From a virus (Duplodnaviria > Heunggongvirae > Uroviricota > Caudoviricetes): DNA of 34,373 nucleotides. Within the stretch, counting starts at the first letter, position 1. Every line of letters starts with the position of its first letter. Below, one piece after another: positions 4,643 through 22,272 of this stretch. The translations under genes were made by a program, and so were the position numbers. The stretch is from the IMG/VR virus record IMGVR_UViG_2713896907_000006, positions 1 to 34,373 of that record, one strand, 5' to 3'. The notes below the pieces were generated by a model. That model was not told the origin of the DNA. It saw only the letters and a list, made by a program, of their open reading frames with translations, and searched no databases.

Positions 4643-5827
4643 ATGAGTGAAACTCGCTTTCATGGCGCCCGCGTTACGGAAAGTACCGACCTGGTAACAG
4701 CAATTAACGACGTTGATTCCAGCGTTATCGGTATCGTGGCAACGGCGGACGATGCGGACGCGAAGCTGTTCCCGCTGAACAAGCCTGCATTAGTGATCCG
4801 CGTCAATGACGTGCTGGGAAAATGCGGGACAACGGGGACGCTGTACCGTGCGCTGAAACCCATTGCAGACCAGGTGAGCACAAAGGTGATCGTCGTTCGC
4901 GTGGCTGAACACAAAGAAGAAGACGGAAAAACACAGGATCAACTGGTTATCGGTGGTTCTGAATCCGACGGCAGCTATACGGGGATGTATGCGCTGCTTG
5001 TTGCAGAGCAGGATGAAAGCATCGGATACCGTCCGCGTATTCTGGCCGCGCCGGGGCTGGACACGGAGGCGGTGACAAAATCCCTGTGCGTGATTGCAGG
5101 TAAACTGCGCGCGTTTGTGTATGCCTCCTGTCATGGCTGTAACACGATGGCTGAAGCCATTGCATACCGTGAAAAATTCAACGAACGCGAGCTGATGCTC
5201 CTGTGGCCGGACTTCATCGCTTACAACCCGAAAAGTGGCGAGAATGAGGTTTTCCCCGCGCCAGCCTATGCGTGCGGCCTTCGTGCGTACATTGACCATG
5301 AGCAGGGCTGGCACAAATCGCTGTCCAACGTTCCGGTCAAAAATGTGCTGGGGATGTCCAGGCATGTGTTCTGGTCGTTGCAGGCTGATGACAGCGATGC
5401 CAACAGCCTCAACAACAAAGAAATCACAACCATCATTCGCCGCAACGGGTTCCGCTTCTGGGGCAACCGCACACCGGAAACGAACGCCTACATCTTTGAG
5501 GTGTATACCCGAACCGCACAGGTGCTGGCTGATTCAATTGCGGAAGCGCAGTTTGAAACCATCGACAGTCCACTGACGCCCGCGAACGTGAAGGACGTCA
5601 TCAGTGCCATCAGGGCAAAACTGGATTCGCTGGTTACTGCCGGGAAACTGATTGGCGCATCGTGCTGGTATGACATCGTGGATAACAGCACCACAGAATT
5701 ACGACAGGGGCGCGTGCGTATTCGCTATAAATATACGCCCGTTCCTCCGCTGGAAGATATGGAGCTTTACCAGGCGTTCACTGATGAGTTCTTTGGTCCT
5801 GCATTTGCAGTGCTTGGAGGTGCTTAA
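4643..5827 (+). CDS. FI: Tail sheath protein FI
   Basis: 394-aa product with the FPLNKP, IIRRNGFRFWGNRT and YTPVPPLE motifs shared with P2 FI. Confidence 0.9.
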   Translation: MSETRFHGARVTESTDLVTAINDVDSSVIGIVATADDADAKLFPLNKPALVIRVNDVLGKCGTTGTLYRALKPIADQVSTKVIVVRVAEHKEEDGKTQDQLVIGGSESDGSYTGMYALLVAEQDESIGYRPRILAAPGLDTEAVTKSLCVIAGKLRAFVYASCHGCNTMAEAIAYREKFNERELMLLWPDFIAYNPKSGENEVFPAPAYACGLRAYIDHEQGWHKSLSNVPVKNVLGMSRHVFWSLQADDSDANSLNNKEITTIIRRNGFRFWGNRTPETNAYIFEVYTRTAQVLADSIAEAQFETIDSPLTPANVKDVISAIRAKLDSLVTAGKLIGASCWYDIVDNSTTELRQGRVRIRYKYTPVPPLEDMELYQAFTDEFFGPAFAVLGGA

Positions 5828-6339
5828 TGGCCGTACCAAAACATCTTCGTTTTTTTACGCTGTTTGTGGATGGTGAAAATGAAGTGGGTAAGGTGACGTC
5901 TGTCACCCCGCCTAAACTGACGCGTAAAACCGACAGCTATCGTGGTGGTGGCATGATGGGGGCGGTGAGTATCGACCTCGGCCTGGACGATTCCGCGCTT
6001 GATGCGAGTTTTGTCATGGGGGGCGCCGTTCGTGCGCTGTTCCTTAAATATGGCGGAACAATGGACGGCACGCTGCTGCGTTTTGCGGGTGAATACTACA
6101 CCGATGCAGAAAGCGACCTGTATGAAATCGAGATGCGCGGGCGTGTGACGGAAATTGATATGGGGGAGGCCAAACAGGGCGAAGCCACGTCACACACTTA
6201 CGCTGTCAAAAACACCTACTACAAGCTGAGTATTAACGATCGTCCGGTGTGGGAAATTGACCTGGTGAACCACATCTACCGGAAGGATGGCAAGGACATT
6301 GTACCCGACCGCATCCGCTCCGCGCTTGGGCTCGGCTGA
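5827..6339 (+). CDS. FII: Tail tube protein FII
   Basis: 170 aa, start overlapping the FI stop; position and length match P2 FII. Confidence 0.85.
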   Translation: MAVPKHLRFFTLFVDGENEVGKVTSVTPPKLTRKTDSYRGGGMMGAVSIDLGLDDSALDASFVMGGAVRALFLKYGGTMDGTLLRFAGEYYTDAESDLYEIEMRGRVTEIDMGEAKQGEATSHTYAVKNTYYKLSINDRPVWEIDLVNHIYRKDGKDIVPDRIRSALGLG

Positions 6340-6393
6340 TAAGTAATATGCAGGCGGCGCAGTGCGTCGCCTCTGACTGAAAGGAGTTTTCTG

Positions 6394-6762
6394 ATGAAAG
6401 AGACGAAAAATACCAATACTGAAAACGCTGTGGTGGTTGCTGATACTGCGAAAGAAACCAGCGAGCGCGGCGTAAAACTTACCCAGCCAATTGAGCGAGG
6501 CGACGAAAAAATCACTTATGTGGAGATTACCGGGGCTATTGAGCAGGCTGGATCCCTGCGTGGTCTGTCGCTGTCTGATGTGCTGAATCTGAAAGCGGAA
6601 TCCATGTTTACGCTGTTGTCACGCGTGACATCACCGCGACTGGATGAAGTGACGATCAAAAAAATGGCATCCCGTGACTTTATTCAGTTATGTGTGGTTG
6701 CCGTAAATTTTTTGAGCGGTGCGGACTCTGGCGGGAAGAACGAACAGGCGACGGAAGCCTGA
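6394..6762 (+). CDS. E: Tail assembly chaperone gpE
   Basis: 122-aa ORF immediately upstream of the tape measure gene, containing a TTTTTTG slippery heptamer near its 3' end. Confidence 0.8.
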   Translation: MKETKNTNTENAVVVADTAKETSERGVKLTQPIERGDEKITYVEITGAIEQAGSLRGLSLSDVLNLKAESMFTLLSRVTSPRLDEVTIKKMASRDFIQLCVVAVNFLSGADSGGKNEQATEA

Positions 6763-6926
6763 TCACGGTTGTGTGCTTTGAGCACATAGAAGACTTTGTG
6801 GCGGATATTGCCGCCATTTTTAACTGGTCGCCCGCCGAAATCTTCATGATGACGCCCGGCGAAGTGGTTAGCTGGCGTGAGCGGGCGGCACTTCGCAGCG
6901 GGAATGCAGACAATGAAGACTCTTGA
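6394..6926 (+). CDS. E+E': gpE+E' frameshift fusion product (predicted)
   Basis: Joining the gpE frame to the -1 frame at the slippery site gives an extended product ending at 6926, as in P2 E/E'. Confidence 0.65.
6708..6714 (+). promoter_or_regulatory. TTTTTTG slippery heptamer for the -1 programmed frameshift producing gpE+E'
   Basis: TTTTTTG lies in the gpE frame as AAT TTT TTG; the -1 frame is open from here to 6926. Confidence 0.75.
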
Positions 6927-9720
6927 TATCCGGGTCGCTTTCAGCGCCGTTGACAGGCTGACCCGGCCTGCCGAAAACGCCCGCCGCCTGATGGGGCAGT
7001 TTGGTGACTCCATCCAGCGAACGCAGGGGGCGATCAAAAATCTCGAGCGTCAGGCGCGTTCATTTGAGCGCGCCCGCGACGCTGTCAGTAAAGCGGATGC
7101 GGGTATCGTGAAAGCACGACGCCAGCTTAACGCCCTTAATCAGTTACAACGCACGGGTACAGTGCTCAGCGAAAAACAACAAAAGCTGATGCAGCAGTTA
7201 AGCACCCGGCTTGAACGCTTGAATGAATCGCGCACACGGGAAATTCAGAAAATGCGGGAACTTGGCGGAGAGTTGAAACGCCACGGCATTTCCCTGACAG
7301 GCAGCGATAACACCATCCAGCAGGCCATCAGACGCACCGAACAGTACAACAACCAGCTTGAACGCGAACGGCAGGCGCTTGCGCGTGTAACGCGGGCGCG
7401 TGAGCGGTATTCGCGCGCGCAGGAAACCGCGGGAAAACTGAAAACAGGTGGTGCGCTGGCAATTGGTGCGGCAGCGGCGGGCGGCTATGCTGCCGGGCGT
7501 TTTTTGCAGCCTGCGATCGGGTTCGGCAAAGAGATGTCCCGCGTTCAGGCACTGACGCGAATCGACAAAAACAGCCCGCAGTTTAAGGCGCTGCGTGAGC
7601 AGGCGTTAAAACTTGGCTCTGAAACACAGTTTACTGCGAGTGATGCCGCCAGTGGGCAGAGCTTTCTGGCAATGGCTGGTTTTACTCCGCAGGCCATTCA
7701 GGCCGCATTGCCCGGTGTTCTTAATATGGCGCTGGCAGGTGGCGTCGAACTCGGCGAGACGGCTGATATAGGCTCCAATATCCTCACACAGTTCAACCTG
7801 ACAGCCGATCAAATGGACCGGGTGGGCGATACGCTGACAGCAGCATTTACCCGGACCAATACTGATTTACGCGCGCTGGGCGAAACCATGAAGTATACCG
7901 GTCCGGTTGCCGCAAAACTTGGTATCAGTCTTGAAGAAGCGGCGGCCATGGCCGGGATGCTTGCCAATAATGGTCTTCGCGGAAGCGATGCTGGCACGGC
8001 CATGCGCGCAAGTCTGTCCCGCCTTGCATCACCGCCAAAAGCTGCGGCTGATGCACTGAAAGAGCTGGGGGTGTCAGTTGCTGACGCCAGAGGCAAAATG
8101 CGCCCGATGGAGGATGTGCTGCTTGATCTCTATAAGGCGACACAAAAATACGGACAGGTGGACCAGGTCTCCTTCTTCAAGGACATCGCCGGAGAAGAGG
8201 CGTTCGTTGGTTTGCAGACGCTTGTTGCGGCGGCTGGTTCAGGAGAGCTGCAAAAACTGACCAGAGAATTGCAGGAGGCAAGGGGAGAGGCCGATCGCGT
8301 TGCAAAAGTAATGGCCGATAATCTTGATGGGGACCTGAAAAATCTCGACAGCGCATGGGAAGGTCTTCGTATTCGCATCAGTGATCTGGTTGACGGTCCG
8401 CTGCGTTCTGTCACGCAGTGGCTCACGCGGGTGCTTGAAAAAATCACCTCGCTGGCGCAGGCCCATCCGGTCCTGACGCGCCAGCTACTGATAGCAGGCG
8501 GTGCGTTGCTGGCAATGACTGCAACGATTGGCTCGTTGTCGCTGGTTATTGGGGTGCTTTACGGGAAGCTGGCCACCTTGCGTCTTGGTTTTGACATTCT
8601 TACCCGGTCAATGAATGTCGTCAGGGTGTTGCCTGCGCTATGGGGAATGGTGACGGGTTCCGTTTCTTTACTGGGAGGCGCGATCGGGGCGTTGTTCAGT
8701 CCGGTTGGTCTTATCGTGGCTGCGCTTGCCGGAGCTGCCGTTCTTATCTGGAAATACTGGGATCCCATCAGGGCATTTTTTGCCGGGGTGTTCAGCGGGA
8801 TTATGGAAAGACTGACCCCGTTGCGTGAAACCTTTGAACGGTTTGGTCCTGTTTTTGACGCAATCGGAAGCGGGATCAGCCAGGTGTTTAACTGGTTTAA
8901 ATCGCTGCTGTCACCGATGGAGTCCAGCAAGGAAACGCTGGATAAATGTACCAGTGCTGGCGAGATATTCGGTAACGTTCTTGGCGGTGCGTTACAACTT
9001 GTTCTGACACCTGCAAAAATGCTACTGGATACGCTGGCGTGGATACTTGAAAAACTTGGCGTCCTTCCGGATGAAGCGGAAAGGGCGCGCAAGAAAATCG
9101 AAGACGCACAGCGTGCGGCCATTCTTCAGGACAAGGTTGCCTTGCTTCAGGGGGACCTGGCGAAAATCAATCCGCCGAAGCCTGTGGAAAATGGCAATGG
9201 CACCGGAGGTGATAAACCCAAAGACAATAAACCGCTCACAGACAGCAATACCGGTACGCTGCGTAGACTCAGCAAAATTGCTGATAACACAGGTAAGCTG
9301 GTTGATGAGACGAAAAAACGCATTGGCCCCGGCGATATTGTCTTTAAGAACCTGCCCCGCGCACTTGCTGTTCGTGGGGAGTGGCAGGAGCGGAAGATTG
9401 CGCAGGTCAGTAAGCCTGCCCCCGCAATTAATATCACACCCGTGGTTCCGGCTCCGCTGCCTCCGGCGCTGGTCCCTGTTGTTGCGGCCAGCTCCCGCCC
9501 GGTGGCGGAGGCCATACGATCGCCAGTGGCATCAGTTCCTGCAACTTCCCGTAACCGGGAACCTGTTGCCTCCGGATTTGGCGGTGAAATTCATGTTCAT
9601 CTGCATAACGTTGTTACACAAAATCCCCGTGAACTGGCGAAACTGGTCGGTGAAATGGTCAGGGCAGAAATGGAACGGCGCGCCCGTGCCGGGCGTGGCA
9701 GTTTTTGCGATAAAGATTGA
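6877..9720 (+). CDS. T: Tail tape measure protein gpT
   Basis: Largest tail ORF (about 935-947 aa), coiled-coil-rich N-terminal half and Gly/Ala-rich hydrophobic segments; sits between E/E' and U. Start may be the ATG at 6913 (MKTLDI). Confidence 0.9.
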   Translation: MSGRHFAAGMQTMKTLDIRVAFSAVDRLTRPAENARRLMGQFGDSIQRTQGAIKNLERQARSFERARDAVSKADAGIVKARRQLNALNQLQRTGTVLSEKQQKLMQQLSTRLERLNESRTREIQKMRELGGELKRHGISLTGSDNTIQQAIRRTEQYNNQLERERQALARVTRARERYSRAQETAGKLKTGGALAIGAAAAGGYAAGRFLQPAIGFGKEMSRVQALTRIDKNSPQFKALREQALKLGSETQFTASDAASGQSFLAMAGFTPQAIQAALPGVLNMALAGGVELGETADIGSNILTQFNLTADQMDRVGDTLTAAFTRTNTDLRALGETMKYTGPVAAKLGISLEEAAAMAGMLANNGLRGSDAGTAMRASLSRLASPPKAAADALKELGVSVADARGKMRPMEDVLLDLYKATQKYGQVDQVSFFKDIAGEEAFVGLQTLVAAAGSGELQKLTRELQEARGEADRVAKVMADNLDGDLKNLDSAWEGLRIRISDLVDGPLRSVTQWLTRVLEKITSLAQAHPVLTRQLLIAGGALLAMTATIGSLSLVIGVLYGKLATLRLGFDILTRSMNVVRVLPALWGMVTGSVSLLGGAIGALFSPVGLIVAALAGAAVLIWKYWDPIRAFFAGVFSGIMERLTPLRETFERFGPVFDAIGSGISQVFNWFKSLLSPMESSKETLDKCTSAGEIFGNVLGGALQLVLTPAKMLLDTLAWILEKLGVLPDEAERARKKIEDAQRAAILQDKVALLQGDLAKINPPKPVENGNGTGGDKPKDNKPLTDSNTGTLRRLSKIADNTGKLVDETKKRIGPGDIVFKNLPRALAVRGEWQERKIAQVSKPAPAINITPVVPAPLPPALVPVVAASSRPVAEAIRSPVASVPATSRNREPVASGFGGEIHVHLHNVVTQNPRELAKLVGEMVRAEMERRARAGRGSFCDKD

Positions 9721-9726
9721 GGAGTC

Positions 9727-10221
9727 ATGGCCATGATGATGATCTACGGCATGTTTGTTTTTGAGCTGCGCACATTGCCGCATCAGCAGTTACAGCAAAA
9801 CAAAAGCTGGCGGCATGTGAAAAATGAACGCGTTAACCGTTCAGCAAGCTGGCAGTATATCGGTGCAGGTGATGATCGCATCGTTCTTTCTGGTGTGCTT
9901 TATCCTGAAATTACAGGTGGCGAAGTGTCGCTGTCGCTGCTGACCACGCAGGCGTATACAGGACGCCCCTGGCCTCTTATTGATGGCGTCGGGCAGATTT
10001 ACGGCATGTATGTCCTGACCGAAGCGAATACGACCCGTTCCGAGTTTGATCGCTACGGTAAAGCGAAAAAGATAGAATTTTCACTGACCCTTGAACGCTG
10101 TGATGAGGATTTGCGGGAGCGCCTGCAATCCTCATCGTTCAGCGATATGCTGTCCGGCTTCAAAGATAAGGTGACATCATCTCTTAACAGCGCGGGCAGT
10201 TCAGTTAAAGGGTTGTTCTGA
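9727..10221 (+). CDS. U: Tail protein gpU
   Basis: 164-aa product (MAMMMIYGMFVFELRTLPHQQ...) directly after the tape measure gene; matches P2 gpU in size and position. Confidence 0.85.
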   Translation: MAMMMIYGMFVFELRTLPHQQLQQNKSWRHVKNERVNRSASWQYIGAGDDRIVLSGVLYPEITGGEVSLSLLTTQAYTGRPWPLIDGVGQIYGMYVLTEANTTRSEFDRYGKAKKIEFSLTLERCDEDLRERLQSSSFSDMLSGFKDKVTSSLNSAGSSVKGLF

Positions 10222-10230
10222 TTTAACACA

Positions 10231-10265
10231 AAAACCGCTAATGGTCAGATTAGCGGTTTTTTCTT
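10231..10265 (+). terminator. Rho-independent terminator after gpU
   Basis: 9-bp stem ACCGCTAAT / ATTAGCGGT with a 6-nt loop, followed by TTTTTTCTTTTG, about 10 nt after the U stop codon. Confidence 0.75.
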
Positions 10266-10515
10266 TTGTTGAATCTTCTCGCTTGTCTGAAGTGGCTCGT
10301 ATTGTGTCCTGACGAGAAAGAGCCGATAAACTAACATCATAACAATCGCGATCTGCTTTCGCATTCTGTCGTCAGGAACCCAAAATTTGTTTTCGTAAAT
10401 CTGCATTATCTATTCTGGTTGTTTCACATAATAACTTGTATACTCCAATATTATCCATAACCACTAAGACTATTTTAAGTAAATTCAGGTTGAAGGATTC
10501 TAAGGAATAATTTCT

Positions 10516-11235
10516 ATGTTAATAGTTTCTGTACTACGTTGCGGTAAGGATTTTACGCCAAAGCATGCACAATGGCTTCATAAACAATTTGGCTCAATGC
10601 CATCAGTCTGCTTAACGGATGCTGGATATATTGATGGAGTGGACACTGCGCCATTGTTATTTGATTGGCCTGGTTGGTGGTCAAAAATGGAATTGTTCAA
10701 CCCCAATCATCCAGTAATTGGAAATCATGATATTTTATATTTTGATATTGATGTTGTTATTACAGGAAAATTAGATGCTTTTGCAAAGGCTAAAAACTTC
10801 ACCATGCTTAGGGAGTTTAATCATCATGGGCGAGTTAATTCATCAATTATGATGATCCCAGTATCTGCAAAGCAAAAAATATGGGATGCCTTTACTGCCA
10901 ATCCTGAGGAGATAATGCAAGAGTGTCGAACTGAAGATAAATGGGGAGATCAAGGGTTTATTGGTAGCATAACAAAACCTGATTTGTGGCAGGATATTAT
11001 TCCTGGTGCAATTAAAAGTTATAAGTGCGATATAGCAACAAAATCAATGATTGGATATAACCCAGATCTCGCATCAAAATCAGCAACAGGAAAAATACCT
11101 AATGGTGTTTCGGTTGTATGCTTTCATGGTAGTCCGCGCCCTTGGCGTACTGGTTTTAAATGGGTTCCATCTTTATCGTTAAAAGACTCTCTCTATGGCA
11201 AAGTAAAAAATCTAAAATTAAAGATTAAGCGTTAA
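10516..11235 (+). CDS. Hypothetical protein, AT-rich moron at the P2 Z/fun-equivalent locus
   Basis: 239-aa ORF in a markedly AT-rich segment between the tail operon terminator and gene G. No family recognised with confidence; contains a hydrophobic strand followed by FDIDVV, a DxD-like arrangement that could indicate a GT-A-type nucleotide-sugar transferase. Confidence 0.7.
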   Translation: MLIVSVLRCGKDFTPKHAQWLHKQFGSMPSVCLTDAGYIDGVDTAPLLFDWPGWWSKMELFNPNHPVIGNHDILYFDIDVVITGKLDAFAKAKNFTMLREFNHHGRVNSSIMMIPVSAKQKIWDAFTANPEEIMQECRTEDKWGDQGFIGSITKPDLWQDIIPGAIKSYKCDIATKSMIGYNPDLASKSATGKIPNGVSVVCFHGSPRPWRTGFKWVPSLSLKDSLYGKVKNLKLKIKR

Positions 11236-11261
11236 TATAAGGGAGGACATCCTCCCTTATA
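11236..11261. terminator. Perfect 11-bp stem hairpin filling the gap between the convergent moron and gene G
   Basis: TATAAGGGAGG-ACAT-CCTCCCTTATA spans exactly the 26 bp between the two stop codons; probable bidirectional terminator. Confidence 0.65.
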
Positions 11262-11828
11262 TCATGGTTGAATAGGCCAAACAGGATCAAAAATATCAAC
11301 ACGATTTAACTGTATTCGATAATTCTTCCAGGCGTTCAGTAACAATGCTTCTTCTTTCGTTGCAATCTCCAGATCTACAGCATCCAGAAGTGGCGCAATA
11401 TGTTCATTAGCCAATTGCATCAGTCTGTTTTTTGTTTCTGCCGCTTCCCGTATCCGAAACAGTTTTTCTGCTTCTGCATCTTTCACCCAGGCTGTGCCGT
11501 TCCACTTCTGAAACTCCCCTTCCGGGGATAACCAGGTGACATGTTCCGGTAGCGGTCCGAGTTCAGAAATAAATAACGCATCCCCTGATGCCACGTCATA
11601 AACCGTTTTACCCCGATGGTCTTCAACGAGATGCCACGATACATCCTCACTGTTGAAAACAGCCACAAAGCCAGCCGGAATATCTGGCGGTGCAATATCG
11701 GTACTGTTTGCAGGCAGACCTGTATGAGGTGGGATGTATGCATCACCTTCACCAATAAATTCATTAGTTCCGGCCAGCAGATTATAAATTTTTATGGTCC
11801 GTGCTTGTTCACTCATTCTGAATGCCAT
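11262..11828 (-). CDS. G: Tail fibre assembly chaperone gpG
   Basis: 188 aa; C-terminal segment [26 protein letters not shown] resembles the P2 gpG C-terminus; located directly downstream of H. Confidence 0.8.
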
Positions 11829-13660
11829 TATGCAAGCCTCACAATATAATTAAATGCGATATTTTTGACGGTGTTTTCCGCGTTACCAGCGGCGTTAACG
11901 GTGATGGTGTGTCCATGCGCACCTAATGCCACAGTGTGCGCATGGGCACCAATACCAACTGTGTGGTTATGTTGACCAATATCGACGGTATGAGAATGCG
12001 CACCAGCACTGTCCGTTTGTGCCAGCGTCTGATAGTTCACTTTTGAACTATAGGTCCCCCCTAAATTCTGAAGATTAGTGCGAGCTAAAACTCCGCCATG
12101 AGTGTGTGCTCCTGTATTGTTTGTCGTTTTTGTGCCGTGATTAAACGTGCTGACCGTTTTTGTCCCGTAATCAAATGAGCTGGTCGTTTTAGTACCGAGG
12201 TCGGTATTTGACGCACTGGCACTGTGGGTGTGAGATTTGATGCCGTCCTGCTCCTGTGACAATACGGCGCGACCACTGGCGGGCTTGCCCTTAATCGTCC
12301 AGCCACGCATATCAGGGATCACGCCTGACGGATAAGCGGCTGCAAGCAGGGGATAGGCTGCTTTATCAAAAGATTGCCCCTGCATAATGGCATAGCCTGT
12401 AGGTACTGAATCAGAAGGCCACGGAATCGCCGCACCTACCGGGAATGAATCCTGCGGTGTCCAAGGTGTCCAGCCACCCGTTGAGTACTGGCTGCGGGTA
12501 TAGCTTCTGGATGTGTTATACACATAGTAAATTTGTGTTATCCCGGCATTTTTAAGCACAACCAGTGTGCCTGCAAGGTTCTCCGGGTATTTCAACACTG
12601 CGCTTGTATTGGCATTCGCTGGCTGATGGTACAGCCCCGGCGTTTTGTAATTATCCAGATTCTGGTTTGCACCAATCTCAATACTCTGACCGTTAAAAAT
12701 ATCCTGCGATGTAACATTGACATCATTGTTCAGTGGCTTGCCATTAACCTTACGTTCTGAGGGCACACGCCCGTTTGCATTGTCATTAGCAGCTTTCACT
12801 GCTTTCGGCGTCGCGGCAAGCGTTTCAGAGTCACTGTTAGTGGCGCTGCTTAACTGGACAAGACCTTTTCGCGCTGTGGTGGCGTCCTGTGCGGTGTATT
12901 TGCCATTAGCAAGGTCATAGGCGGCCTTTACCGCCTTTGGCGTTGCCGCAAGCGTTTCAGAATCGCTGTTGGTGGCGCTACTGAGCTGGATAAGGCCTTT
13001 TCGCGCGGTGGTGGCATCCTGTGCAGTATATTTCCCGTTAGCAAGGTCATAGGCGGCCTTTACCGCCTTTGGCGTTGCTGCAAGCATTTCAGAATCGCTG
13101 TTGGTGGCGCTACTGAGTTGAACAAAGCCTTTTGCGGTCAGCGAGGCATCCGGGTGACGTCGTGACTGTTCATGCTCTTTTAGTTTGTCATCCACGTAAT
13201 CCGCTGTGGCCATCACCATGGTGTTATCCACGGTAAGCGCCACGGTGGCCGTGCTGGATACAGTCAGGATGGTGCGAAATGTTTGCGCTCGCCCGGACCC
13301 TTCGGCAACGGTTGGCTTGTAACTTTCGGCAGTATTGCCCACCGCGATTAAATCGCCGTGCTCATCAAACACACCAATTTCCCGGATCCAGAATCCGCCC
13401 GTTTCAGGAGGAATAACCAGCTCTGCAATAATGCGGTTCTGATGTGTTGCGTCCAGGAAGACGCGATTAACAGTATGTCGCCACACCTCATGCACCAGAC
13501 TGGTCTGCTTACTGTCTGGTGTGGGCAATGTACCGCCACCGTCGCCCACGGCCATATGAGTCAGGCGGACAGGCTTACCATCTGGCGCGGCTGCCTGAGC
13601 TAATTTTTTGGCACCAGTATCAGTGATAATGGTTTTAAATTTTCGTGTTGTGGTACTCAT
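11828..13660 (-). CDS. H: Tail fibre protein gpH
   Basis: N-terminus [26 protein letters not shown]... closely parallels P2 gpH. Contains three tandem copies of an approximately 41-aa unit and a His-rich C-terminal region. Confidence 0.9.
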
Positions 13661-13662
13661 GC

Positions 13663-14226
13663 TTAATCGTCCGGATAAATGGTAATGACTTCACCGTCGT
13701 AAGTTGCTGCCGCCGCGAAAATATCTCCCGGGATCTCCTGAATGATATTCAGCCCTGTCATGTGGCGGCTGACCGGGCGGGCATCAGCAATCAACCGCTC
13801 CATTTCCAGATACATTTCCTCCGTCACGCCACTGTCCAGCGTGCCGACTTCAACGGTAAATGTTCCCGGTTCTCCGCCGAACTCCCACCACTCAGACACA
13901 CGAATGAGGTACCCCAGCGGCTCAATGGCCCGGCGCAGTGCGCTGATGGTCCCTTTGTGTCGGTGTATCAGCCATGCATCACGAATCACCTGTCGCTTTG
14001 TCTCTTCCGGCCAGTTGCGATCCCAGCGGTCAACGGAAAACGCCCAGGCGAGATAAGGCAGCAGATGCACCGGGCATGTGTCCGGCGACCACAGCATGTT
14101 GAGGTCTACCGGAATGTCTGTAATGCGTGTTCCGACGGCTTCGGCACAACGCATGAAATTGCTGGCTGATGGTGGTAACAGTGAATTACTCATTGCGCCC
14201 TCCTTCGCTGATGGTGAATGACTCAC
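13663..14226 (-). CDS. I: Baseplate protein gpI
   Basis: 187-aa ORF between J and H in conserved P2 order. Confidence 0.8.
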
Positions 14227-15082
14227 AGCGCGCCGCCTGTATGTCGCTGATGGCCATATTCTGTGTGGGTTCGATTATCTCCACGCGTTGCACTCCGTGC
14301 ACATGCAGTGCGGCAGCAATGGCGGACAACGCCACGTCCTGACCGATAAGCCCCTGTTCAGCCAGCCACTTCCTGAATGACGATTCCGCCGCGGCCAGAA
14401 TAGGTTCGGATTCCGGGCCGGGGTAAAAGTACAGTTTTGCATTCAGCCGCCATGTCACGATTCTGGCGCTCTGTACGGTCAGGCGGTCGGCCACCGGGCG
14501 GGTATCCTCTGCATTCAGAACGGCGCGAACGGTATTAAGCAACGCCTCCGTTGCTGTGCCGTCGCCCTCAGTGGACAGGATGGAAACCGTCACACAGGCC
14601 GGAGACGGGCTGATGGCTCGCGCATCGCGCACCAGACCGCTGGCGCTGCGGGCAAAATACTCGTATGCGCCTGACGGGCCTGCAACACTCAGGCCGTCAT
14701 ATGCCCGCTGCGCCCGCAGCCTCAGCGAGGTGTCGCTCTCCATCACCGCGTCGGTGGTATCTGTTGCCGGAGTGATAATCAGGCGCTTTGTGTTCATATT
14801 GCCCGCGAGGTTGTCCAGGTTTGTCCCTGAACCGTGGCTTAACATGCAGGCGCGTGCGCCCTCGTTAACCCGCTGGCGTAACAGCATTTCACGAAACGAC
14901 ATGGTTTGAGCGATAACGTTCAGGGGTTCTGATTCCAGCTCCAGCGCGGCGGAGACGGCTTCACGCTGTTCGGCAGGATAGGACGCAATCATCATGGCCT
15001 TTGTGTCAGCCAGAATTGCCTCAAAGTCAGGCTCCGCGATGATGGCGGGTTCCGGTAACTGGGAAAGGTCAACAGCAGGCAT
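14186..15082 (-). CDS. J: Baseplate protein gpJ
   Basis: 298-aa ORF; size and position match P2 gpJ. Confidence 0.85.
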   Translation of the reverse strand: MPAVDLSQLPEPAIIAEPDFEAILADTKAMMIASYPAEQREAVSAALELESEPLNVIAQTMSFREMLLRQRVNEGARACMLSHGSGTNLDNLAGNMNTKRLIITPATDTTDAVMESDTSLRLRAQRAYDGLSVAGPSGAYEYFARSASGLVRDARAISPSPACVTVSILSTEGDGTATEALLNTVRAVLNAEDTRPVADRLTVQSARIVTWRLNAKLYFYPGPESEPILAAAESSFRKWLAEQGLIGQDVALSAIAAALHVHGVQRVEIIEPTQNMAISDIQAARCESFTISEGGRNE

Positions 15083-15085
15083 GAT

Positions 15086-15436
15086 TTACTCTCTCAGCGT
15101 GATGGTTAATTCAACATTCTGCATGGTCTGCATGACAGTGCCCGACAGCGTCACCCCGGCGCGGCCTCCCGCTTTCCAGACAACGTCGATGGCGTCCAGG
15201 GCAATGCGGGGTTCCCATCGTGTCAGCGCAATCACGGCAGCACTCATGCATTGCAGACGCGTGGTGTTATTCATGGGTTCGTCAATCAAATCAGGCACAA
15301 GGCTGCCATATTCCCGTCGCATAACCCGGCTGGCCAGCGGGGTGGTCAGGATGTCCCTGACTGACTGTTTCAGGTGCTCCATATCATTCAGGTTTCCCGT
15401 TCCGTCCGGGTTCATTCCTGTGTAGCGGGTTGTCAC
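15086..15436 (-). CDS. W: Baseplate protein gpW (gp25-like)
   Basis: 116 aa; MTTRYTGMNPDG...VMRREYGSL...WEPR parallels P2 gpW. Confidence 0.85.
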   Translation of the reverse strand: MTTRYTGMNPDGTGNLNDMEHLKQSVRDILTTPLASRVMRREYGSLVPDLIDEPMNNTTRLQCMSAAVIALTRWEPRIALDAIDVVWKAGGRAGVTLSGTVMQTMQNVELTITLRE

Positions 15437-16014
15437 TGCGGGCCTCCTGTCGAATCGCTGCCACCTTTAACGCCACCGTGTTTATGCGTATGCACTGTGA
15501 TGCCGTTTGAGGTGAAATCGCCGCCGCTGTGCGTGATATTGCCGCTCATCTTTCCCCCTTTTGTGACGTCAATCTCGGCTGTTTTCAGAAGGTTTGTGCA
15601 CTCCACAACAGGCGTGTCCAGTGTCACGCTGACGGATGCCTGCAGACTGGCCGTTTTCATGCCGCCGGCGCTCAGTGCGCTTTTGTCAGCGTCATAACGA
15701 ATCACTGCACCGTCCGGGGCTGTGATGACGATTTCTTTCAGGCTTTTGCCGGGGGCCGGACTGGCATCACTCCACAGGCTGCCGATTATCATGGCGGTTT
15801 CCGGATTGCCGCCGATGCAGGCAATTGCCACCTGTTCGCCGGGTGATGGCGGCAACCACACATTGAAGGCACCCGCGCGCGTGGTGTTCCAGCGCAGCCA
15901 GCCTGTTTCCAGTTCGCCGCTGCGAACGCGCACGCACCAGGATTCCTCATCAACTTCAGAGATGATCCCGGTGCGGATGATATTGCTCAGCAGTCGCATG
16001 AGTTCTGCGCTCAC
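15433..16014 (-). CDS. V: Baseplate spike protein gpV
   Basis: 193 aa with a Gly-rich C-terminus and an HTHKH histidine cluster as in P2-type spike tips. Confidence 0.85.
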   Translation of the reverse strand: MSAELMRLLSNIIRTGIISEVDEESWCVRVRSGELETGWLRWNTTRAGAFNVWLPPSPGEQVAIACIGGNPETAMIIGSLWSDASPAPGKSLKEIVITAPDGAVIRYDADKSALSAGGMKTASLQASVSVTLDTPVVECTNLLKTAEIDVTKGGKMSGNITHSGGDFTSNGITVHTHKHGGVKGGSDSTGGPQ

Positions 16015-16646
16015 CGTACAGCCTCCGCAATCCGGCCCAGCACAGAGTTATAAATCAGGCGTTCATCTGCCGGGCTGATGCCCAACAGCTCACGTACCGG
16101 GTAATCGGTGAAAATGCCCGGCGCAACCTGATCGCGCTCACCGAACTGATGAACGCGTGCAATACGTGCGGCCACGCCGCTGTAACCCACCGTCACACCG
16201 GAAGCATCTGCACGGGCTTTCAGGTAGCGGGCGGTGCGCAGTTTTACGAACATGGGGACGCGCTTTGTGCTGTCCTGGTTGATGCGCCGGGTGCGTATTT
16301 CCAGAAAACGGTCGATGTCATCCCGGTAAAACGTGCGGATATTGTTTTTATCCTCATCCCACCCGGTAATGGTTCGCCCGTATTTCCCCGTGTCGTGATG
16401 CCAGTTTTTCAGCGTGCGTGCTTCGTTATTCCAGATAAAGCGAATGCGCTCCTGTATCCGGGTAACGCGGCGTCTGCGTGGTGTCCATGCGGTCCCGTCC
16501 GGCGCTTTCTGTGACCGGATGCGCGCCTGCTGGGCGCGGCGTAAATCCTGTGCCAGCTTTCTGGCGATGTTATTGATGGCCTGCTGATTCAGGCTGTCGC
16601 GGATGGCCTCAAAGGTTTCATCCGCGCGGGTGAATGCCTTATCCAT
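16011..16646 (-). CDS. S: Tail completion / virion morphogenesis protein gpS
   Basis: 211-aa ORF in the conserved R-S-V order, translationally coupled to neighbours. Confidence 0.75.
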   Translation of the reverse strand: MDKAFTRADETFEAIRDSLNQQAINNIARKLAQDLRRAQQARIRSQKAPDGTAWTPRRRRVTRIQERIRFIWNNEARTLKNWHHDTGKYGRTITGWDEDKNNIRTFYRDDIDRFLEIRTRRINQDSTKRVPMFVKLRTARYLKARADASGVTVGYSGVAARIARVHQFGERDQVAPGIFTDYPVRELLGISPADERLIYNSVLGRIAEAVR

Positions 16647-17106
16647 CGCTTTCGTCCCACGTCACATCCTGGAATACATGTGACCAGTCGCCTTCGGAAG
16701 ATGGCAGGCGGGGTTTTGGCTCCGGCAGGTGTTCTGCCTGTGGTGTGCCCTGACTGCTGCGCGTGACGCGAACGCGCTCCCGCAGGGGCAGTGTAAACAG
16801 GATGTCGGCGCTGTCATCGTCATTAATAACGGCAGAAAATTTGATGTCCTGATTACGCTCAGGGTTGAGCAACAACTGCGGCTGATTCTCCGACAACCAT
16901 GCCAGCAGCGGCAGAGTCAGGTCGTCTAGCTCCCCGGCGTAATCCATGACAAACATCACCATCTGATAGCGGTAAGCAAACGAGGGAGTTTCTCCGGTCG
17001 TTTCAATGTTGCCGCTCTCCACGAAAATGGTGAATTTCTCCGGGTTGGCGTGACACCATCGACATGAACGGGTCATGGCTTCACGCAGGGAATCAGTTTT
17101 CAGCAT
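16639..17106 (-). CDS. R: Tail completion protein gpR
   Basis: 155 aa, the same length as P2 gpR, immediately downstream of the lysis genes. Confidence 0.8.
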   Translation of the reverse strand: MLKTDSLREAMTRSCRWCHANPEKFTIFVESGNIETTGETPSFAYRYQMVMFVMDYAGELDDLTLPLLAWLSENQPQLLLNPERNQDIKFSAVINDDDSADILFTLPLRERVRVTRSSQGTPQAEHLPEPKPRLPSSEGDWSHVFQDVTWDESDG

Positions 17107-17383
17107 GGCTGTTGTCCTCGTTGTTCAGTCGTTGCAGTCTGCGCTGCTCCAGTAATTCAATGGCCCGTTTATCCGCGTTACAGGTTTCCAGTGCATCCAG
17201 AAGGCGGTCGCCCCATATACCGAGGTTTCCCCAGGTGGGAGTATCAGGGAAGGGGGGAGGCGTTACCGGTATGGTCAGCGTCTGCGGTATAAGCCGGGCC
17301 GACGGCGCTGGCAGTGGCGCGTTCTGCGTGCCTGCGCAACCTGTCAGTAAAACGAGCGTCAGGCAAAGCGTGGGCGCATTCAT
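17093..17383 (-). CDS. lysC: Outer-membrane spanin (LysC/Rz1-like lipoprotein)
   Basis: Starts inside the i-spanin gene in another frame; MNAPTLCLTLVLLTGCAG has a lipobox (LTGC); Pro-rich mature region. Confidence 0.7.
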   Translation of the reverse strand: MNAPTLCLTLVLLTGCAGTQNAPLPAPSARLIPQTLTIPVTPPPFPDTPTWGNLGIWGDRLLDALETCNADKRAIELLEQRRLQRLNNEDNSHAEN

Positions 17384-17651
17384 CTTTTGCAATATCGTTG
17401 CGTAGCTGTTCACGTCTGGCCTCTCCATCCTGATTGCGTTGCTGATTTTCCACGCGGAGTTGCGCCAGCACCTGCTGCATATCCTGTACCCCGGTGCTGA
17501 TGATATTCAGGGTGTCGACGGTACTTTTCAGGGCGCTGGCCTGCGCTTCGTTTCTGGCGTTCTCCCGGCCCAGCGACCACGACAGACGCATGGATGCTCC
17601 CCATGCGGCAATCAGAAGAAAAGCGACGCCCAGAGAAGTCCATAACCTCAT
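17244..17651 (-). CDS. lysB: Inner-membrane spanin (LysB/Rz-like)
   Basis: N-terminal transmembrane helix (LWTSLGVAFLLIAAWGA), charged coiled-coil-like periplasmic region, start overlapping the endolysin stop. Confidence 0.75.
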   Translation of the reverse strand: MRLWTSLGVAFLLIAAWGASMRLSWSLGRENARNEAQASALKSTVDTLNIISTGVQDMQQVLAQLRVENQQRNQDGEARREQLRNDIAKDECAHALPDARFTDRLRRHAERATASAVGPAYTADADHTGNASPLP

Positions 17652-18193
17652 GCCGCCACGCGTTCCTTTATCCAGCCGTAGACAAACGACTCGTTGGCTT
17701 CGCGTTTTTCCGCCAGTTCCAGATAGCGTTCACCCTGTGTACAGTTCAGTGCTGCTAACATCACCATCTCGCCGTCCCGACCGCGTTTGTCCAGATATGC
17801 ACGCAATGCGTTAATCGTGCGTGGGCCAGTGCGTCCGTCCGTGTCCATATCGGGATACAGTTTCCCGCCCTGATTGAATGCGTTCAGCCAGCGCTGCAGC
17901 ATTCTGGTTGCCACAGACGGCCCCATATTTACTCCGGTGTCACATAGTTCTGCGGCAATATCCGGGGACAGCTTCGCTATCTGATCAAGACGCGGTCCGT
18001 ACCAGTAATCAGCTTCAAGGATTTCCAGTGCCTGTCCGCGCGTTAAATCACGCATATCGCCACGGTATCCGTGCGCCCGTGCCACCTTTTCAGTGATGCC
18101 CCATTTTGTCGGGCCGCCTTTGTCATCCGGGTGATTGACGTAGCCGCCTTCTTTGCCCAGAACGGCATCAAAAATTTCGTCTTTCGATTTCAT
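17648..18193 (-). CDS. Endolysin, GH108-type muramidase with C-terminal peptidoglycan-binding region
   Basis: N-terminus MKSKDEIFDAVLGKEGGYVNHPDDKGGPTKWGIT matches the GH108 EGGY signature. Confidence 0.8.
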   Translation of the reverse strand: MKSKDEIFDAVLGKEGGYVNHPDDKGGPTKWGITEKVARAHGYRGDMRDLTRGQALEILEADYWYGPRLDQIAKLSPDIAAELCDTGVNMGPSVATRMLQRWLNAFNQGGKLYPDMDTDGRTGPRTINALRAYLDKRGRDGEMVMLAALNCTQGERYLELAEKREANESFVYGWIKERVAA

Positions 18194-18233
18194 TTCGTCA
18201 CCCCTGTGAACAATTTTTAGTTAAGTCTGCGGC

Positions 18234-18558
18234 TTATTCATCCTCGCTTTTGGTTCTGCGATTAAAGGCCGCAATAACCTTGTCGCGTGCTTTCTCTGCG
18301 CCCATAAAACCGATTGATGCGCCGATAAACGTCACGGCATCTTCAGGAAAACCGAAGAAGCGCAACGACCCGGCCACGGCCATGGCAAGAACGCCGCACG
18401 CCAGCGATCCCGTTACGGTCTGAACCAGTGTTCGTCCGTCATAAAGACTCATCAGCGCGGAAATGCTGACCGCCGCGCCTACTGCATACACCGTTGGCAG
18501 GTGGTCAAGGAGCCACGCAATAACCTGCTCTGTGATCCCTGTTTGAATGGTGCTCACC
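18234..18558 (-). CDS. Putative holin
   Basis: About 108 aa with two or three hydrophobic helices and a charged C-terminus, between X and the endolysin. Start placed at a GTG just after the gpX stop; an internal ATG is also possible. Confidence 0.55.
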
Positions 18559-18559
18559 G

Positions 18560-18766
18560 CTACTCTCCCCACAACTGAATCATTTCTCGTTTCTTCTTCT
18601 CCGGCTCCGGCATCTCCACTTCCTGCCCGGCGTTCAGAAATACCTGCTGACAGAGTCCGGGGTTGGCATCCATCACCTTTTCGGTGACGCCCTGCGTCGT
18701 GCCGTAGTACCGGAAACAGAGCGAATCCACGGTGTCGCCTGCTAGTGCCTTCACTTTCATCAGCAC
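18560..18766 (-). CDS. X: Tail protein gpX
   Basis: 68-aa product MLMKVKALAGDTVDSLCFRYYG... matches P2 gpX. Confidence 0.85.
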   Translation of the reverse strand: MLMKVKALAGDTVDSLCFRYYGTTQGVTEKVMDANPGLCQQVFLNAGQEVEMPEPEKKKREMIQLWGE

Positions 18767-19263
18767 AGCTCCGCAAACATTCGTGGTCTTCCCAGAATGT
18801 CAGAGATGGCCCAGCTCACATCGCGCCACAGGTCCGCAGCCTGTGCGTCCAGTGCATCTGCCCGGCGCTCGCCCTTATCCGTTGTGTCCGCATCGCGGTA
18901 ACGCTCCAGAATCAGGGCACGGGTGGCGGTGTAAACCGCATTGCGCCAGTGCCAGAGATTGACGCTTTCTCCGTTAATTAATGGCGCCGGGACATCGGCC
19001 AGTGTTTCGTGTCCGGCTGCCTGCTGTTCCTGCTGCCACGCTTCCAGCTCACGGGTAACGTGGGCCACCGCCCCGGTGGCGGTATGCAGCAGGCGGGAGG
19101 TGGTCACGCGGCCCGGCAGTCGTACCGCCAGACGCAGCTCACGCAGCACAATATCCGGCCAGAATGCCCCCGCAGAAATACGGGTATCGCCATCATCGGT
19201 ATCAGTGATGTCATCCTCTGCGGGGCGGGTTTCGGTTCTGGCAACCATACTCATGGGGTTCAC
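18760..19263 (-). CDS. L: Head completion protein gpL
   Basis: 167 aa, close to the P2 gpL length, directly downstream of M. Confidence 0.85.
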   Translation of the reverse strand: MNPMSMVARTETRPAEDDITDTDDGDTRISAGAFWPDIVLRELRLAVRLPGRVTTSRLLHTATGAVAHVTRELEAWQQEQQAAGHETLADVPAPLINGESVNLWHWRNAVYTATRALILERYRDADTTDKGERRADALDAQAADLWRDVSWAISDILGRPRMFAELC

Positions 19264-19355
19264 TCCTGAAAAAATCGGGCGGTGGGTGCGTGGTGTAAAC
19301 GGTCACGGAGTCAAACCGGAACACCGCGCACGCCGCCCGCTGACGGGGTCAGTCG

Positions 19356-20153
19356 TTAACCGCGCTTCGCCTTCTGCGTCGCGGTGGTTTTTCGTGTTGC
19401 AGGCTTCCGCGTTGTCTTTTTACTTTTGCTGCTTTCGTCCTGCGCCTGCTGTGCGCTGGCAACTGGTGCGGCTGCGGAATCGGCTTTTTTCAGGGCGCGG
19501 GAAAGGGTTGCAATCTCGCGTTTCACACCTGCGTTCGGGTTCAGGTGCATCGCTTCGCGCAGCTGCTTCAGTGATAAGGCCATGTTGTCTGCATCGGTCA
19601 GACCACGACGGGCAAAGGCGCACGCCTTGCATAATTTGGCGCGCACTTCGTCCGGCATGTCCTGGTCGGTGACAATCTCCCGGAGGGTGTCCAGTGGTTC
19701 GATAAAGGCGGACAAATCCGCGTCGGCATCCGTCCCGGCCTGCGTCAGTACCGGATTGCAGATTTCTTCGGTCAGAACCGTGGCAGCAGTACGGCCAAAG
19801 TTATCCGGCATGATGAGGTTGTGACGGACCACATACGCACCAATACGCAGCGCCAGCGGAAGATCGCCGCAGTCAATCGCCCACACCATCAGCGTGGCAA
19901 TCACTTCATCCTGCTGCCCGCCGTCAGCCTCCAGCGTTCCCTCAATCCAGCCGGAAAAATCCGGCAACAACTCTTTTTTGATGGCGGCTTTCGCGCTTCT
20001 GGCCTGTACGCCCTTAAGCCGGGCCTGTGCCAGACGCAGACGATACAGCACCTCTTCATGCGCGGTACGCGCAGCGTGGTCCACGCCTTCATTCGCCCGG
20101 CCCGCGCGCTGTGCCATCACGTTCTGCCAGTGTTGCTGTGCAGGAGTAATCAT
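19356..20153 (-). CDS. M: Terminase small subunit gpM
   Basis: 265 aa; internal segment and the MPDEVRAKL motif parallel P2 gpM; basic C-terminal tail. Confidence 0.85.
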   Translation of the reverse strand: MITPAQQHWQNVMAQRAGRANEGVDHAARTAHEEVLYRLRLAQARLKGVQARSAKAAIKKELLPDFSGWIEGTLEADGGQQDEVIATLMVWAIDCGDLPLALRIGAYVVRHNLIMPDNFGRTAATVLTEEICNPVLTQAGTDADADLSAFIEPLDTLREIVTDQDMPDEVRAKLCKACAFARRGLTDADNMALSLKQLREAMHLNPNAGVKREIATLSRALKKADSAAAPVASAQQAQDESSKSKKTTRKPATRKTTATQKAKRG

Positions 20154-20170
20154 TTTTTCTCTCCGTTACA

Positions 20171-20196
20171 GGCGGGCANNNNNNNTGATGCCCGCC
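20171..20196. other. Intercistronic hairpin between N and M whose loop contains a run of 7 N (20179-20185)
   Basis: GGCGGGCA - NNNNNNNTGA - TGCCCGCC: the flanks are perfect inverted repeats, so the ambiguous bases fall in a hairpin loop. Followed on the coding strand by GGAGAG and the M start codon. Confidence 0.8.
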
Positions 20197-20205
20197 GTGA
20201 GTTGA

Positions 20206-21258
20206 TTAGCTGTCGGCGAACTTCAGGCCAGTGACCATCGCGCACTTGCCATAGTCTTCAACGACATAAGCGTCATTGATGGACTGGTAGGTGGCGATGC
20301 GGTTGTATTCCGGTTCGTCTTTCATCAGGCGACGCATTGAACCTTTCTGCCAGTAAATCGACAGGTTGTTGAACGAGGTGATCAGCATCGTTGCATCCGG
20401 GAAGAACGGCGCAAGGAACACGCCCAGCCCGCCAATGGTGCGCGATGACAGGATGAGTTGCCCGGCGAGTAATTCCGCATTGGGATTCTGGCCGCTGATG
20501 CTGTTCAGCACGGGCAGACGCAGCGAGTTAAACAGGTTGCGCCCCATAATCACCACGAGGTCGTCAGCTTCCTTGTGCCATTCATCCAGCAGGGATGAGC
20601 GCGCATCCTGTACCAGTGCATCAGCGTTCGCATACTTACCCGCGTGCGCCACGGTGTTGTCCATGTTACGGGAGGTCAGCGTCACGTCATTCATAACGCG
20701 CTCGCTGGCGTCGGTTCTGATGTGCTCCAGCCATCCCACGTTAACGTCCTGAAGCAGCTTGTTGGTGCTGAAGTTGGACTCATCCGCGTGAGACGTGCCG
20801 TTGAAACCGATCATGATGCGGTCAAGCGCCACCTGTCGGGCAATCTGTGCGCTGATGCGGGACTGAAAATCAGGGTGTGCCGACCAGGCATCAAGCTGCG
20901 GATACGAAATAAACGTGTCGTAGTTCACCTGTTCGCACTGGTATTTGCGGTTTTTCAGATCAACCACGTTATTCGGGTTACGGCGTTTTGTTCCGTCATA
21001 ACTGGTATTCGTGCGCGCAATCGGTCCTGTGGTATCCAGGAGGATTTTTTCGCCTTTCTGGTCGGTCACGCCGATCACGTTAATTCTTTTCGTAAATTCG
21101 GTACTTTCCTTTGAGGCGTTTTCAAAACGCTGCTGCACCGAGGGTTCTACGGTAAATCGCGATACCAGTGCAGAAACCGGGATATTGTTAAGCGACGCCT
21201 GCTGCGCCATATAGCAACCCAGCTTGTTGCGGGTAATATCTGACATCACCAGATTCAT
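20206..21258 (-). CDS. N: Major capsid protein gpN
   Basis: 350 aa, size and position match P2 gpN. Confidence 0.9.
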   Translation of the reverse strand: MNLVMSDITRNKLGCYMAQQASLNNIPVSALVSRFTVEPSVQQRFENASKESTEFTKRINVIGVTDQKGEKILLDTTGPIARTNTSYDGTKRRNPNNVVDLKNRKYQCEQVNYDTFISYPQLDAWSAHPDFQSRISAQIARQVALDRIMIGFNGTSHADESNFSTNKLLQDVNVGWLEHIRTDASERVMNDVTLTSRNMDNTVAHAGKYANADALVQDARSSLLDEWHKEADDLVVIMGRNLFNSLRLPVLNSISGQNPNAELLAGQLILSSRTIGGLGVFLAPFFPDATMLITSFNNLSIYWQKGSMRRLMKDEPEYNRIATYQSINDAYVVEDYGKCAMVTGLKFADS

Positions 21259-21281
21259 AAAAAATTTGCTCCTTTGTCTTA

Positions 21282-22118: not shown

Positions 22119-22272
22119 AGTTTTTGCCCCTCTGACTGGTCCTTCAGTCATGATGGCAAAGCGTAACAGGCTGATACAAAGGGCTTTTGTTGTAAGAAAA
22201 CGGCCAGAACAGGGGGTTAAGGAGAACGGTTTCGCGCGCGGGTAATCTTCCTGTAATTACTCAGGGGGAGCA
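22119..22272. promoter_or_regulatory. Divergent O/P intergenic region, presumed late promoter pair
   Basis: 154-bp gap between divergent capsid (O) and terminase (P) genes, as in P2. Assigned by position; no exact Ogr-site match found. Confidence 0.45.

Follow-up and report, generated by a model that had tools for sequence, protein, structure and literature searches.

Tandem arrays of the Pfam family PF03406 (Phage_fiber_2, 'phage tail fibre repeat') have been catalogued in the tail fibres of several groups of phages. In the Peduoviridae, the gpH protein of P2, its counterparts in P88 and Chuche, and the K protein of phage 186 all share a PF12571 N-terminus, a tandem PF03406 array that starts at approximately residue 174–177, and the gene order J-I-H-Tfa. 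The same family is represented in the S proteins of Mu, D108 and P1, and the same Pfam repeat, under the name 'Pf2' domain, is found in lambda Stf and in the collagen-like fibres of Stx phages (PMC3368898). Little is known of the Pf2 domain itself; a globular body that is seen by EM between two flexible stalks of rEPclB has been read as including Pf2 domains (PMC3368898), and PF03406 has been listed among the repeat families without known structure (PMC8078820). The literature that we found on PF03406 consists of domain listings, papers on P2 pseudotyping and on RBPseg contain nothing on the repeats, and we found no explicit account of unit-number polymorphism or of chimeric junctions in the literature on PF03406 / Phage_fiber_2.

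Here we describe a PF03406 array in a stretch of 34,373 nucleotides of Caudoviricetes DNA (IMG/VR record IMGVR_UViG_2713896907_000006, positions 1 to 34,373), which is referred to throughout as the window. The window is a P2-like prophage that encodes gpD, sheath, tape measure, gpU, gpA and integrase, and its gene order is that of phage P88 (Xuanwuvirus), including the FI-U block that lies on the opposite strand. The genes around the tail fibre follow the order W-J-I-H-Tfa (Baseplate_J, Tail_P2_I, H, Caudo_TAP), and the features relevant to the fibre are as follows.

13663..14226, minus strand: baseplate protein gpI, directly upstream of H (PF09684 Tail_P2_I, E 4e-50)
11828..13660, minus strand: tail fibre gene H, 610 aa, with PF12571, three PF03406 stretches and PF07484, of a P88/P2-like (Xuanwuvirus-type) prophage
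13202..13645, minus strand: N-terminal baseplate-attachment domain of H, aa 6–153 (PF12571 Phage_tail_fib, phage tail-collar fibre N-terminus, E 2.4e-54)
11262..11828, minus strand: tail fibre assembly protein (Tfa / P2 gpG type), 188 aa (PF02413 Caudo_TAP, E 8.8e-33; phrog_105, E 2.7e-87)

The PF12571 N-terminus and the location between J-I and the fibre assembly gene identify H as a P2 gpH-type fibre. An earlier note, made from the sequence of the window alone, had already called the gene tail fibre gene H, and the N-terminal domain together with the order J-I-H-Tfa confirms that label. A protein identical to H is already listed in public databases, where it is annotated as a phage tail protein of Escherichia albertii and assigned the same Pfam domains.

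Several features of the surrounding prophage can be recorded at this point. The sheath/tube/tape-measure block up to gpU (4643–10221, plus strand) lies opposite to the head, baseplate and fibre genes (11262–22151, minus strand), unlike the arrangement in P2. Since P88 has the same organisation, the strand arrangement of the FI-U block is a trait of the lineage and not a rearrangement in the window. Between the Tfa gene and gpU, at 10516–11235 on the plus strand, there is an ORF of 239 aa that is without a Pfam match and that matches the glycosyltransferase moron family phrog_1962 (E 2.6e-77). In relatives the same slot is occupied by an invertase with an alternative fibre/Tfa cassette (P88) or by a hexapeptide or serine O-acetyltransferase (relatives L013 and L019), and it looks like a cargo site for surface-modifying enzymes. 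A different insertion, a macro-domain protein of 282–300 aa (PF01661) between H and the Tfa gene, is carried by many close relatives, as seen in L010, L011, L012, L020 and L003 (Chuche), and is missing from the window. At the end of the prophage beside gpD, 884–3055 on the minus strand encodes a KAP-family P-loop NTPase of 723 aa (PF07693, E 3e-47), which lies outside the P2 core gene set and may have a defence or cargo function. The gene of the replication protein gpA (940 aa) is followed closely on its downstream side, at 26741–27700 on the minus strand, by one for a ParM/StbA-type actin-like segregation protein (PF06406 and PF21523), the P88 counterpart of which is annotated as 'recombinase'; a plasmid-partition ATPase is unexpected in an integrated P2-like prophage.

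The array within H is made up of three in-frame tandem units, each of 132 nt (44 aa), which together span 12737–13132 of the window on the minus strand.

13001..13132, minus strand: repeat unit 1, aa 177–220; a 'KGF' head common to all first units, and a body like unit 2 of relatives
12869..13000, minus strand: repeat unit 2, aa 221–264; identical to unit 1 at 120/132 nt
12737..12868, minus strand: repeat unit 3, the terminal variant, aa 265–308; a conserved 27-residue core followed by a tip-type-specific tail

Tandem Repeats Finder reported a single array at 12802–13133 (period 132, 2.5 copies, 88% matches, score 508), and a separate repeat search returned three 132-nt copies at a spacing of 132 nt. 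Pfam places three stretches of PF03406 in H, with a score of 198.7 bits (E 7.3e-60) against a gathering cut-off of 22 bits for this family, and the best of these stretches spans profile positions 1–41 of 42. The array belongs to PF03406 both by this score and by its layout, with units of ~40 residues in tandem inside a tail fibre protein. The earlier note had described three tandem copies of an approximately 41-aa unit at 12760–13150. The triplication is seen with Tandem Repeats Finder, the repeat search and the three PF03406 stretches alike, but the unit is 44 aa in length, as is the motif that the note itself had quoted, and the in-frame units place the array at 12737–13132, on the minus strand.

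Each unit comprises a strongly conserved core of 27 residues, which begins with KG, and a linker of 17 residues. Units 1 and 2 are near-identical (120/132 nt, 41/44 aa), whereas unit 3 has only its first 27 residues in common with them and is diverged over its last 17. The repetition at both the protein and the nucleotide level that the earlier note described is near-exact for units 1 and 2 only. The array of every homologue closes with a unit of the unit-3 type.

Comparison of the copies with each other is informative about their age. It can be seen that units 1 and 2 differ at 12 of 132 nt, units 1 and 3 at 50 and units 2 and 3 at 49, so that unit 3 is identical to either of the others at 82–83/132 nt. 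The 12 differences between units 1 and 2 amount to 8 synonymous and 3 non-synonymous codons. When unit 3 is compared with units 1 and 2 over the 27 codons of the core, 17–20 nt are different, of which 15–17 are at third codon positions, and these differences correspond to 15–17 synonymous and 1–2 non-synonymous codon changes. Because the differences in the core are almost all synonymous, we conclude that the units are old copies that have been kept by purifying selection on the protein.

These differences also bear on whether the three copies might be an assembly duplication of a single-copy sequence, the one outcome by which the earlier note would have considered its observation refuted. The window does come from a draft-type assembly (GCA_001514965.1). 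However, an artefactual duplication would yield identical copies, whereas the pairs of copies in H are separated by 12, 49 and 50 differences over 132 nt, mostly synonymous, and the reading frame is preserved through the array. Moreover, the same three-unit array is present in two protein clusters, on 2 and 3 contigs respectively, and also in the isolated phage Chuche, and the relatives all have at least two units. Since copies created by misassembly would not have diverged in this manner, an artefactual origin of the array is extremely improbable.

Unit numbers in relatives were counted with an HMM that was built from the three units of the window and run on H and its 120 best homologues, a list that is ranked by score and is consequently biased toward proteins with more units. 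Three, four, five and six units were found in 3, 87, 30 and 1 of these sequences, respectively, and the three sequences with three units are H and its two near-identical database entries. In all of the sequences counted the array begins at residue 177 and holds a 44-residue register, and the first unit always begins with KGF while the last is always of the ..NDNANGRVP.. type. The variation in copy number among related prophages that the earlier note had anticipated is thus observed, with 3, 4, 5 or 6 units among the 120 best homologues; the window's own allele showed no polymorphism and has three units wherever it was found.

Among isolated phages, four units are present in a P2 isolate (variant), three in P88 and in Chuche, two in 186, approximately two in P1, and one in Mu and D108, and the fibre genes of two complete E. 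coli chromosomes encode three units (UTAK-6) and four units (DEC5B). Unit number varies within a single C-terminal tip type, as alleles with 4 and with 5 units are found for the 300-aa type and for the 314-aa type alike, and conversely three-unit alleles are paired with several different tips (in the window, Chuche, P88 and UTAK-6). When the unit profile was run against 1.84 billion representative proteins, 3,320 proteins were matched at E≤0.001, and the best 150 of these carry from 2 to 21 units each. The largest full-length arrays that we saw are in two P1-S-like fibre proteins, P0121 and P0122, which have 11–12 PF03406 units and may possibly reflect assembly expansion; in both, units of 44 residues alternate with those of a longer variant, in which APSSHTHPWNQITGVPTASLTA is found. 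Some of the copy-number variants come from single draft assemblies, in which repeat collapse could mimic a deletion. The array varies in length and is prone to recombination, and short-read assemblies may give it the wrong size.

How single units are gained and lost can be followed in a pair of alleles from relatives, P0070 with five units and P0113 with four. Their flanks are identical, at 528/528 nt before the array and 945/945 nt after it, with 0 amino-acid differences in the 176 N-terminal and 314 C-terminal residues. Units 1 and 2 and the last unit are also identical, leaving a difference of exactly one unit between the two alleles. Units 3 and 4 of P0070 differ from each other at 28 sites, and unit 3 of P0113 is a chimera of the two, matching P0070 unit 3 at the first 21 of these informative sites and unit 4 at the final 7; the one switch from the former to the latter falls between positions 90 and 103 of the unit. 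We conclude that the P0113 junction is the product of an in-register unequal crossover or slippage that removed 132 nt; in the reverse direction, the same event reads as a duplication. Assembly collapse is an unlikely cause of this difference because both alleles are found in many independent assemblies (344 index blocks for P0070 and 51 for P0113, of which 27 and 2, respectively, include contigs of >1 Mb).

Other alleles without any difference in their flanks carry a chimera at the junction of units 1 and 2 (P0110) or of units 4 and 5 (P0120), or have an extra, nucleotide-identical copy of unit 2 (P0028, P0049 and P0043). These are singletons from draft assemblies and call for more caution. 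The mechanism put forward in the earlier note, recombination between units, is seen directly in relatives, in the form of flank-identical alleles that differ by one unit and have a chimeric unit at the junction. Such gain and loss is the expected behaviour of tandem in-frame repeats and will not surprise a specialist.

In the window, the longest exact run common to units 1 and 2 is 41 nt, so a substrate for recombination events between these two units is present, while unit 3 has exact runs of at most 14 nt in common with either. The combination of a KGF head with a unit-2-like body suggests that unit 1 of the window may derive from an old deletion between units 1 and 2 in a four-unit ancestor. 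Painting of this unit against four relatives gave a unit-1-like head and a mostly unit-2-like body; the pattern is not clean, as no close four-unit relative was available for the comparison.

A quite different explanation for a variable array would be that it lies within a programmed variation system, whether a diversity-generating retroelement with its TR/VR pair, an invertase switch or a slipped-strand contingency locus. One relative, P88, does encode a DNA invertase, together with an alternative fibre cassette, on the downstream side of H. However, the slot of the P88 invertase is occupied in the window by the glycosyltransferase gene, a search of the window that allowed up to 3 mismatches gave no match to the Mu/D108 crossover (gix-like) site, and 9700–13700 contains no long inverted repeats that could flank the array. 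In P88, the probable crossover arms are located ~115 residues past the array and do not adjoin it. An invertase-switched fibre of the Mu Gin, P1 Cin or P88 type was rejected on the grounds that the site, the inverted repeats and the invertase are all missing. The array was likewise rejected as the target of a diversity-generating retroelement, as the differences between units are not adenine-restricted but include substitutions of all types, most of which fall at third codon positions; the ORFs scanned, which are a part of those in the window, yielded no reverse transcriptase, and the region is an ordinary P2/P88 gene set. Finally, units of 132 nt always keep the frame, unlike the 1–9-nt repeats of contingency loci, and a slipped-strand contingency locus was rejected for this reason. 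Overall, we give a programmed system next to no chance of being the correct explanation.

The last unit differs from the others in a further respect, since it contains the point at which the similarity of H to other fibre genes ends.

12770..12784, minus strand: mosaic joint, gene nt 877–891, in unit 3 (BLAST end points)

Similarity of H at the DNA level extends over nt 1–877 for fibre genes of the P88 type, 1–884 for UTAK-6, 105–891 for the P2 isolate and up to 887 for 186, and for DEC5B it ends at nt 891. All of these BLAST end points are within unit 3 (gene nt 793–924), directly after the conserved AATPKAVK core, and beyond the joint DNA similarity continues only for fibres of the same tip family. 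Since homology to P88, P2 and 186 ends in unit 3, the array also marks a tip-swap joint; it thus closes the constant module of the fibre, with the last unit serving as the joint at which different tips are swapped in. This fits an older idea that conserved motifs of fibres act as points of exchange.

It might be argued from this that the units persist mainly as conserved recombination linkers for the exchange of tip modules, and that any structural role is secondary. Such a view would account for homology to the P88, P2, 186 and UTAK-6 fibres stopping in the last unit, and for the presence of the unit, at 55–95% amino acid identity, in P2, 186, P1, Mu, lambda-type and Stx fibres with unrelated flanks. 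It is also in keeping with the position of the annotated invertase crossover site of Mu/D108 and 186, ~10 residues past the last unit. However, conservation is at the level of the protein, and unit 3 has diverged heavily from units 1–2 at synonymous sites, which argues that it is the fold that is selected and not DNA identity. In addition, a linker would need no more than one unit, whereas arrays of 3–12 units are kept. We therefore think it rather unlikely that tip exchange is the main reason for which the units persist. The last unit is a sensible fusion point for engineered chimeric P2-type fibres or tailocins.

On the far side of the joint, the C-terminal part of H has features of its own.

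12293..12436, minus strand: collar domain, aa 409–456 (PF07484, E 1.8e-10), which aligns to the gp37 tip 2XGF
11831..12451, minus strand: T4 gp37-like receptor-binding tip, aa 404–610 (phmmer against PDB 2xgf_A, E 2e-74, chain 27–242)
11981..12160, minus strand: hypervariable tip segment, aa 501–560; the entropy peak, and the part that aligns poorly with gp37

The match to 2XGF, the PF07484 Collar domain and repeated HxH motifs (n=6, at aa 477, 519, 555, 564, 573 and 582) identify this region, by sequence, as a gp37-type tip; in tips of this type, the histidines of the HxH motifs coordinate iron ions in the trimer. With this, H has all of the testable sequence-level hallmarks of the PF03406 repeat, of the P2 gpH-type fibre and of the gp37-type tip. 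H is thus a cross-family mosaic, in which a temperate P2-type shaft is joined to a T-even-type needle. H also contains further short tandem repeats at 11907–11965 and 12125–12197, one with a period of 27 nt and the other of 30 nt; in the protein, these are the periods of 9 and 10 residues that characterise the gp37-like needle.

Column entropy was calculated for each query position over 120 distinct sequences (H and homologues). Mean values were 0.06 bits for the N-terminal domain, 0.13 for the array and 0.15–0.18 for the middle part and collar, and rose to 0.85 at aa 506–560. Stretches of 20 residues starting at aa 501, 521 and 541 gave 0.73–0.98 bits, and those elsewhere gave 0.01–0.24. The variable stretch presumably corresponds to the distal needle end and head domain of gp37, which are said to carry the receptor contacts of that protein, and aa 501–560 is a likely specificity determinant of H. 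Because entropy peaks in the gp37-like tip, variability, and most probably specificity with it, sits in the tip rather than in the repeats. The proposal of the earlier note that the array is a likely host-range variable region is not supported by these values, as the units are conserved (0.13 bits) and the variability is located at aa 501–560 (0.85 bits).

The array could still influence host range through its length, if unit number altered the reach of the fibre and hence the hosts to which the phage can adsorb, given differences in O-antigen or capsule thickness. Unit number does vary between otherwise identical fibres, so selection has material to work on, and the glycosyltransferase moron that adjoins the fibre genes would fit an LPS-interacting lineage. 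In Pseudomonas tailocins, length haplotypes of the fibre gene correlate with killing spectrum, although these haplotypes have not been shown to be repeat-number variants (bioRxiv 10.1101/2023.04.17.536465). On the other hand, the units are conserved and the variable part of the fibre is the tip; unit number varies within one tip type and has no visible association with tip sequence, and three-unit alleles are carried with several tips, as noted above for the window, Chuche, P88 and UTAK-6. A role of the array as a host-range variable region thus seems unlikely on these comparisons. The more specific idea of selection on unit number as a means of tuning length, whereby frequent in-register gain and loss of units would let one tip type get to its receptor in the outer membrane across O-antigen or capsule layers that differ in thickness, appears less likely still. 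If true, P2-like phages and tailocins would possess, beside tip sequence, a second and rapidly evolving determinant of host range in the form of repeat number. Clean pairs of four-unit and five-unit alleles are ready material for work on shaft length and adsorption.

Structural information on the unit is scarce. Searches of PDB sequences, run both with the whole of H and with the array by itself, retrieved the unit in Mu S entries only, and the paper on Mu cryo-EM (PMC11915804) makes no statement as to whether the unit is resolved. An AlphaFold2 model of aa 160–320 as a monomer, from an alignment of 24 sequences, had a mean pLDDT of 40 and a pTM of 0.24 and was unusable. As a member of this family, the H fibre would be trimeric.

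Taken together, we consider it likely that the units are structural modules of the fibre shaft which are held by selection on their fold, that their number drifts by unequal recombination, and that the last unit has a second role as the place where tips are exchanged. According to this explanation, PF03406 units would form the proximal shaft, with the N-terminal domain that binds the baseplate on one side and the distal part that binds the receptor on the other, and we infer that they act as structural spacers whose number sets the length of the fibre. Neighbouring units retain long identical stretches of DNA, which would allow in-register unequal homologous recombination or replication slippage. 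Whole units of 132 nt would be gained or lost in this way with the frame intact, giving rise to the alleles of 3–6 units in the lineage, of which that in the window is a short, three-unit example. Recombination in the conserved core of the last unit would then join unrelated C-terminal tips to a common N-terminal part.

Several known systems can be compared with H. The tip of T4 gp37 (2XGF) matches H over aa 404–610 (E 2e-74), with the collar and HxH motifs in common; this likeness concerns the tip and not the repeats, and the matched part of gp37 has no PF03406 array. Six HxH motifs are present in H compared with seven counted in the aligned part of gp37, and the segment of H at aa ~506–550 is divergent. 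In lambda Stf and the collagen-like fibres of Stx phages, the same Pfam repeat is found behind a different N-terminal domain (PF08400), either singly or in small numbers; in the Stx phages, collagen triple-helix segments lie between the units. Mu and D108 S, with one unit, and P1 S, with approximately two, carry units of the same family at the end of their constant part, and Mu S (PDB 5YVQ, 8JU3 and 9KI1) aligns to unit 3 of the window with E ~1e-9. In Mu and D108, however, the Gin crossover site is located after the unit, and site-specific inversion exchanges one tip for another, whereas the window has neither site nor invertase.

The remaining comparison is with the Peduoviridae described at the outset. 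Compared with the three units of the window, the P2 variant has four, P88 and Chuche have the same number and 186 has two. A P2 isolate is up to 95.5% identical to the window over two units, while the C-terminal parts of the P2 and P88 fibres past gene nt ~880 are unrelated to that of H, and P88 has an invertase and a second fibre cassette that are both lacking in the window. The array matters little as a discovery, given that its Pfam family is curated, that phage P2 has the same array and that the protein is already public. What H contains is a repeat of the catalogued PF03406 family, in a fibre of the P2 gpH type, and this is a known and ordinary feature.
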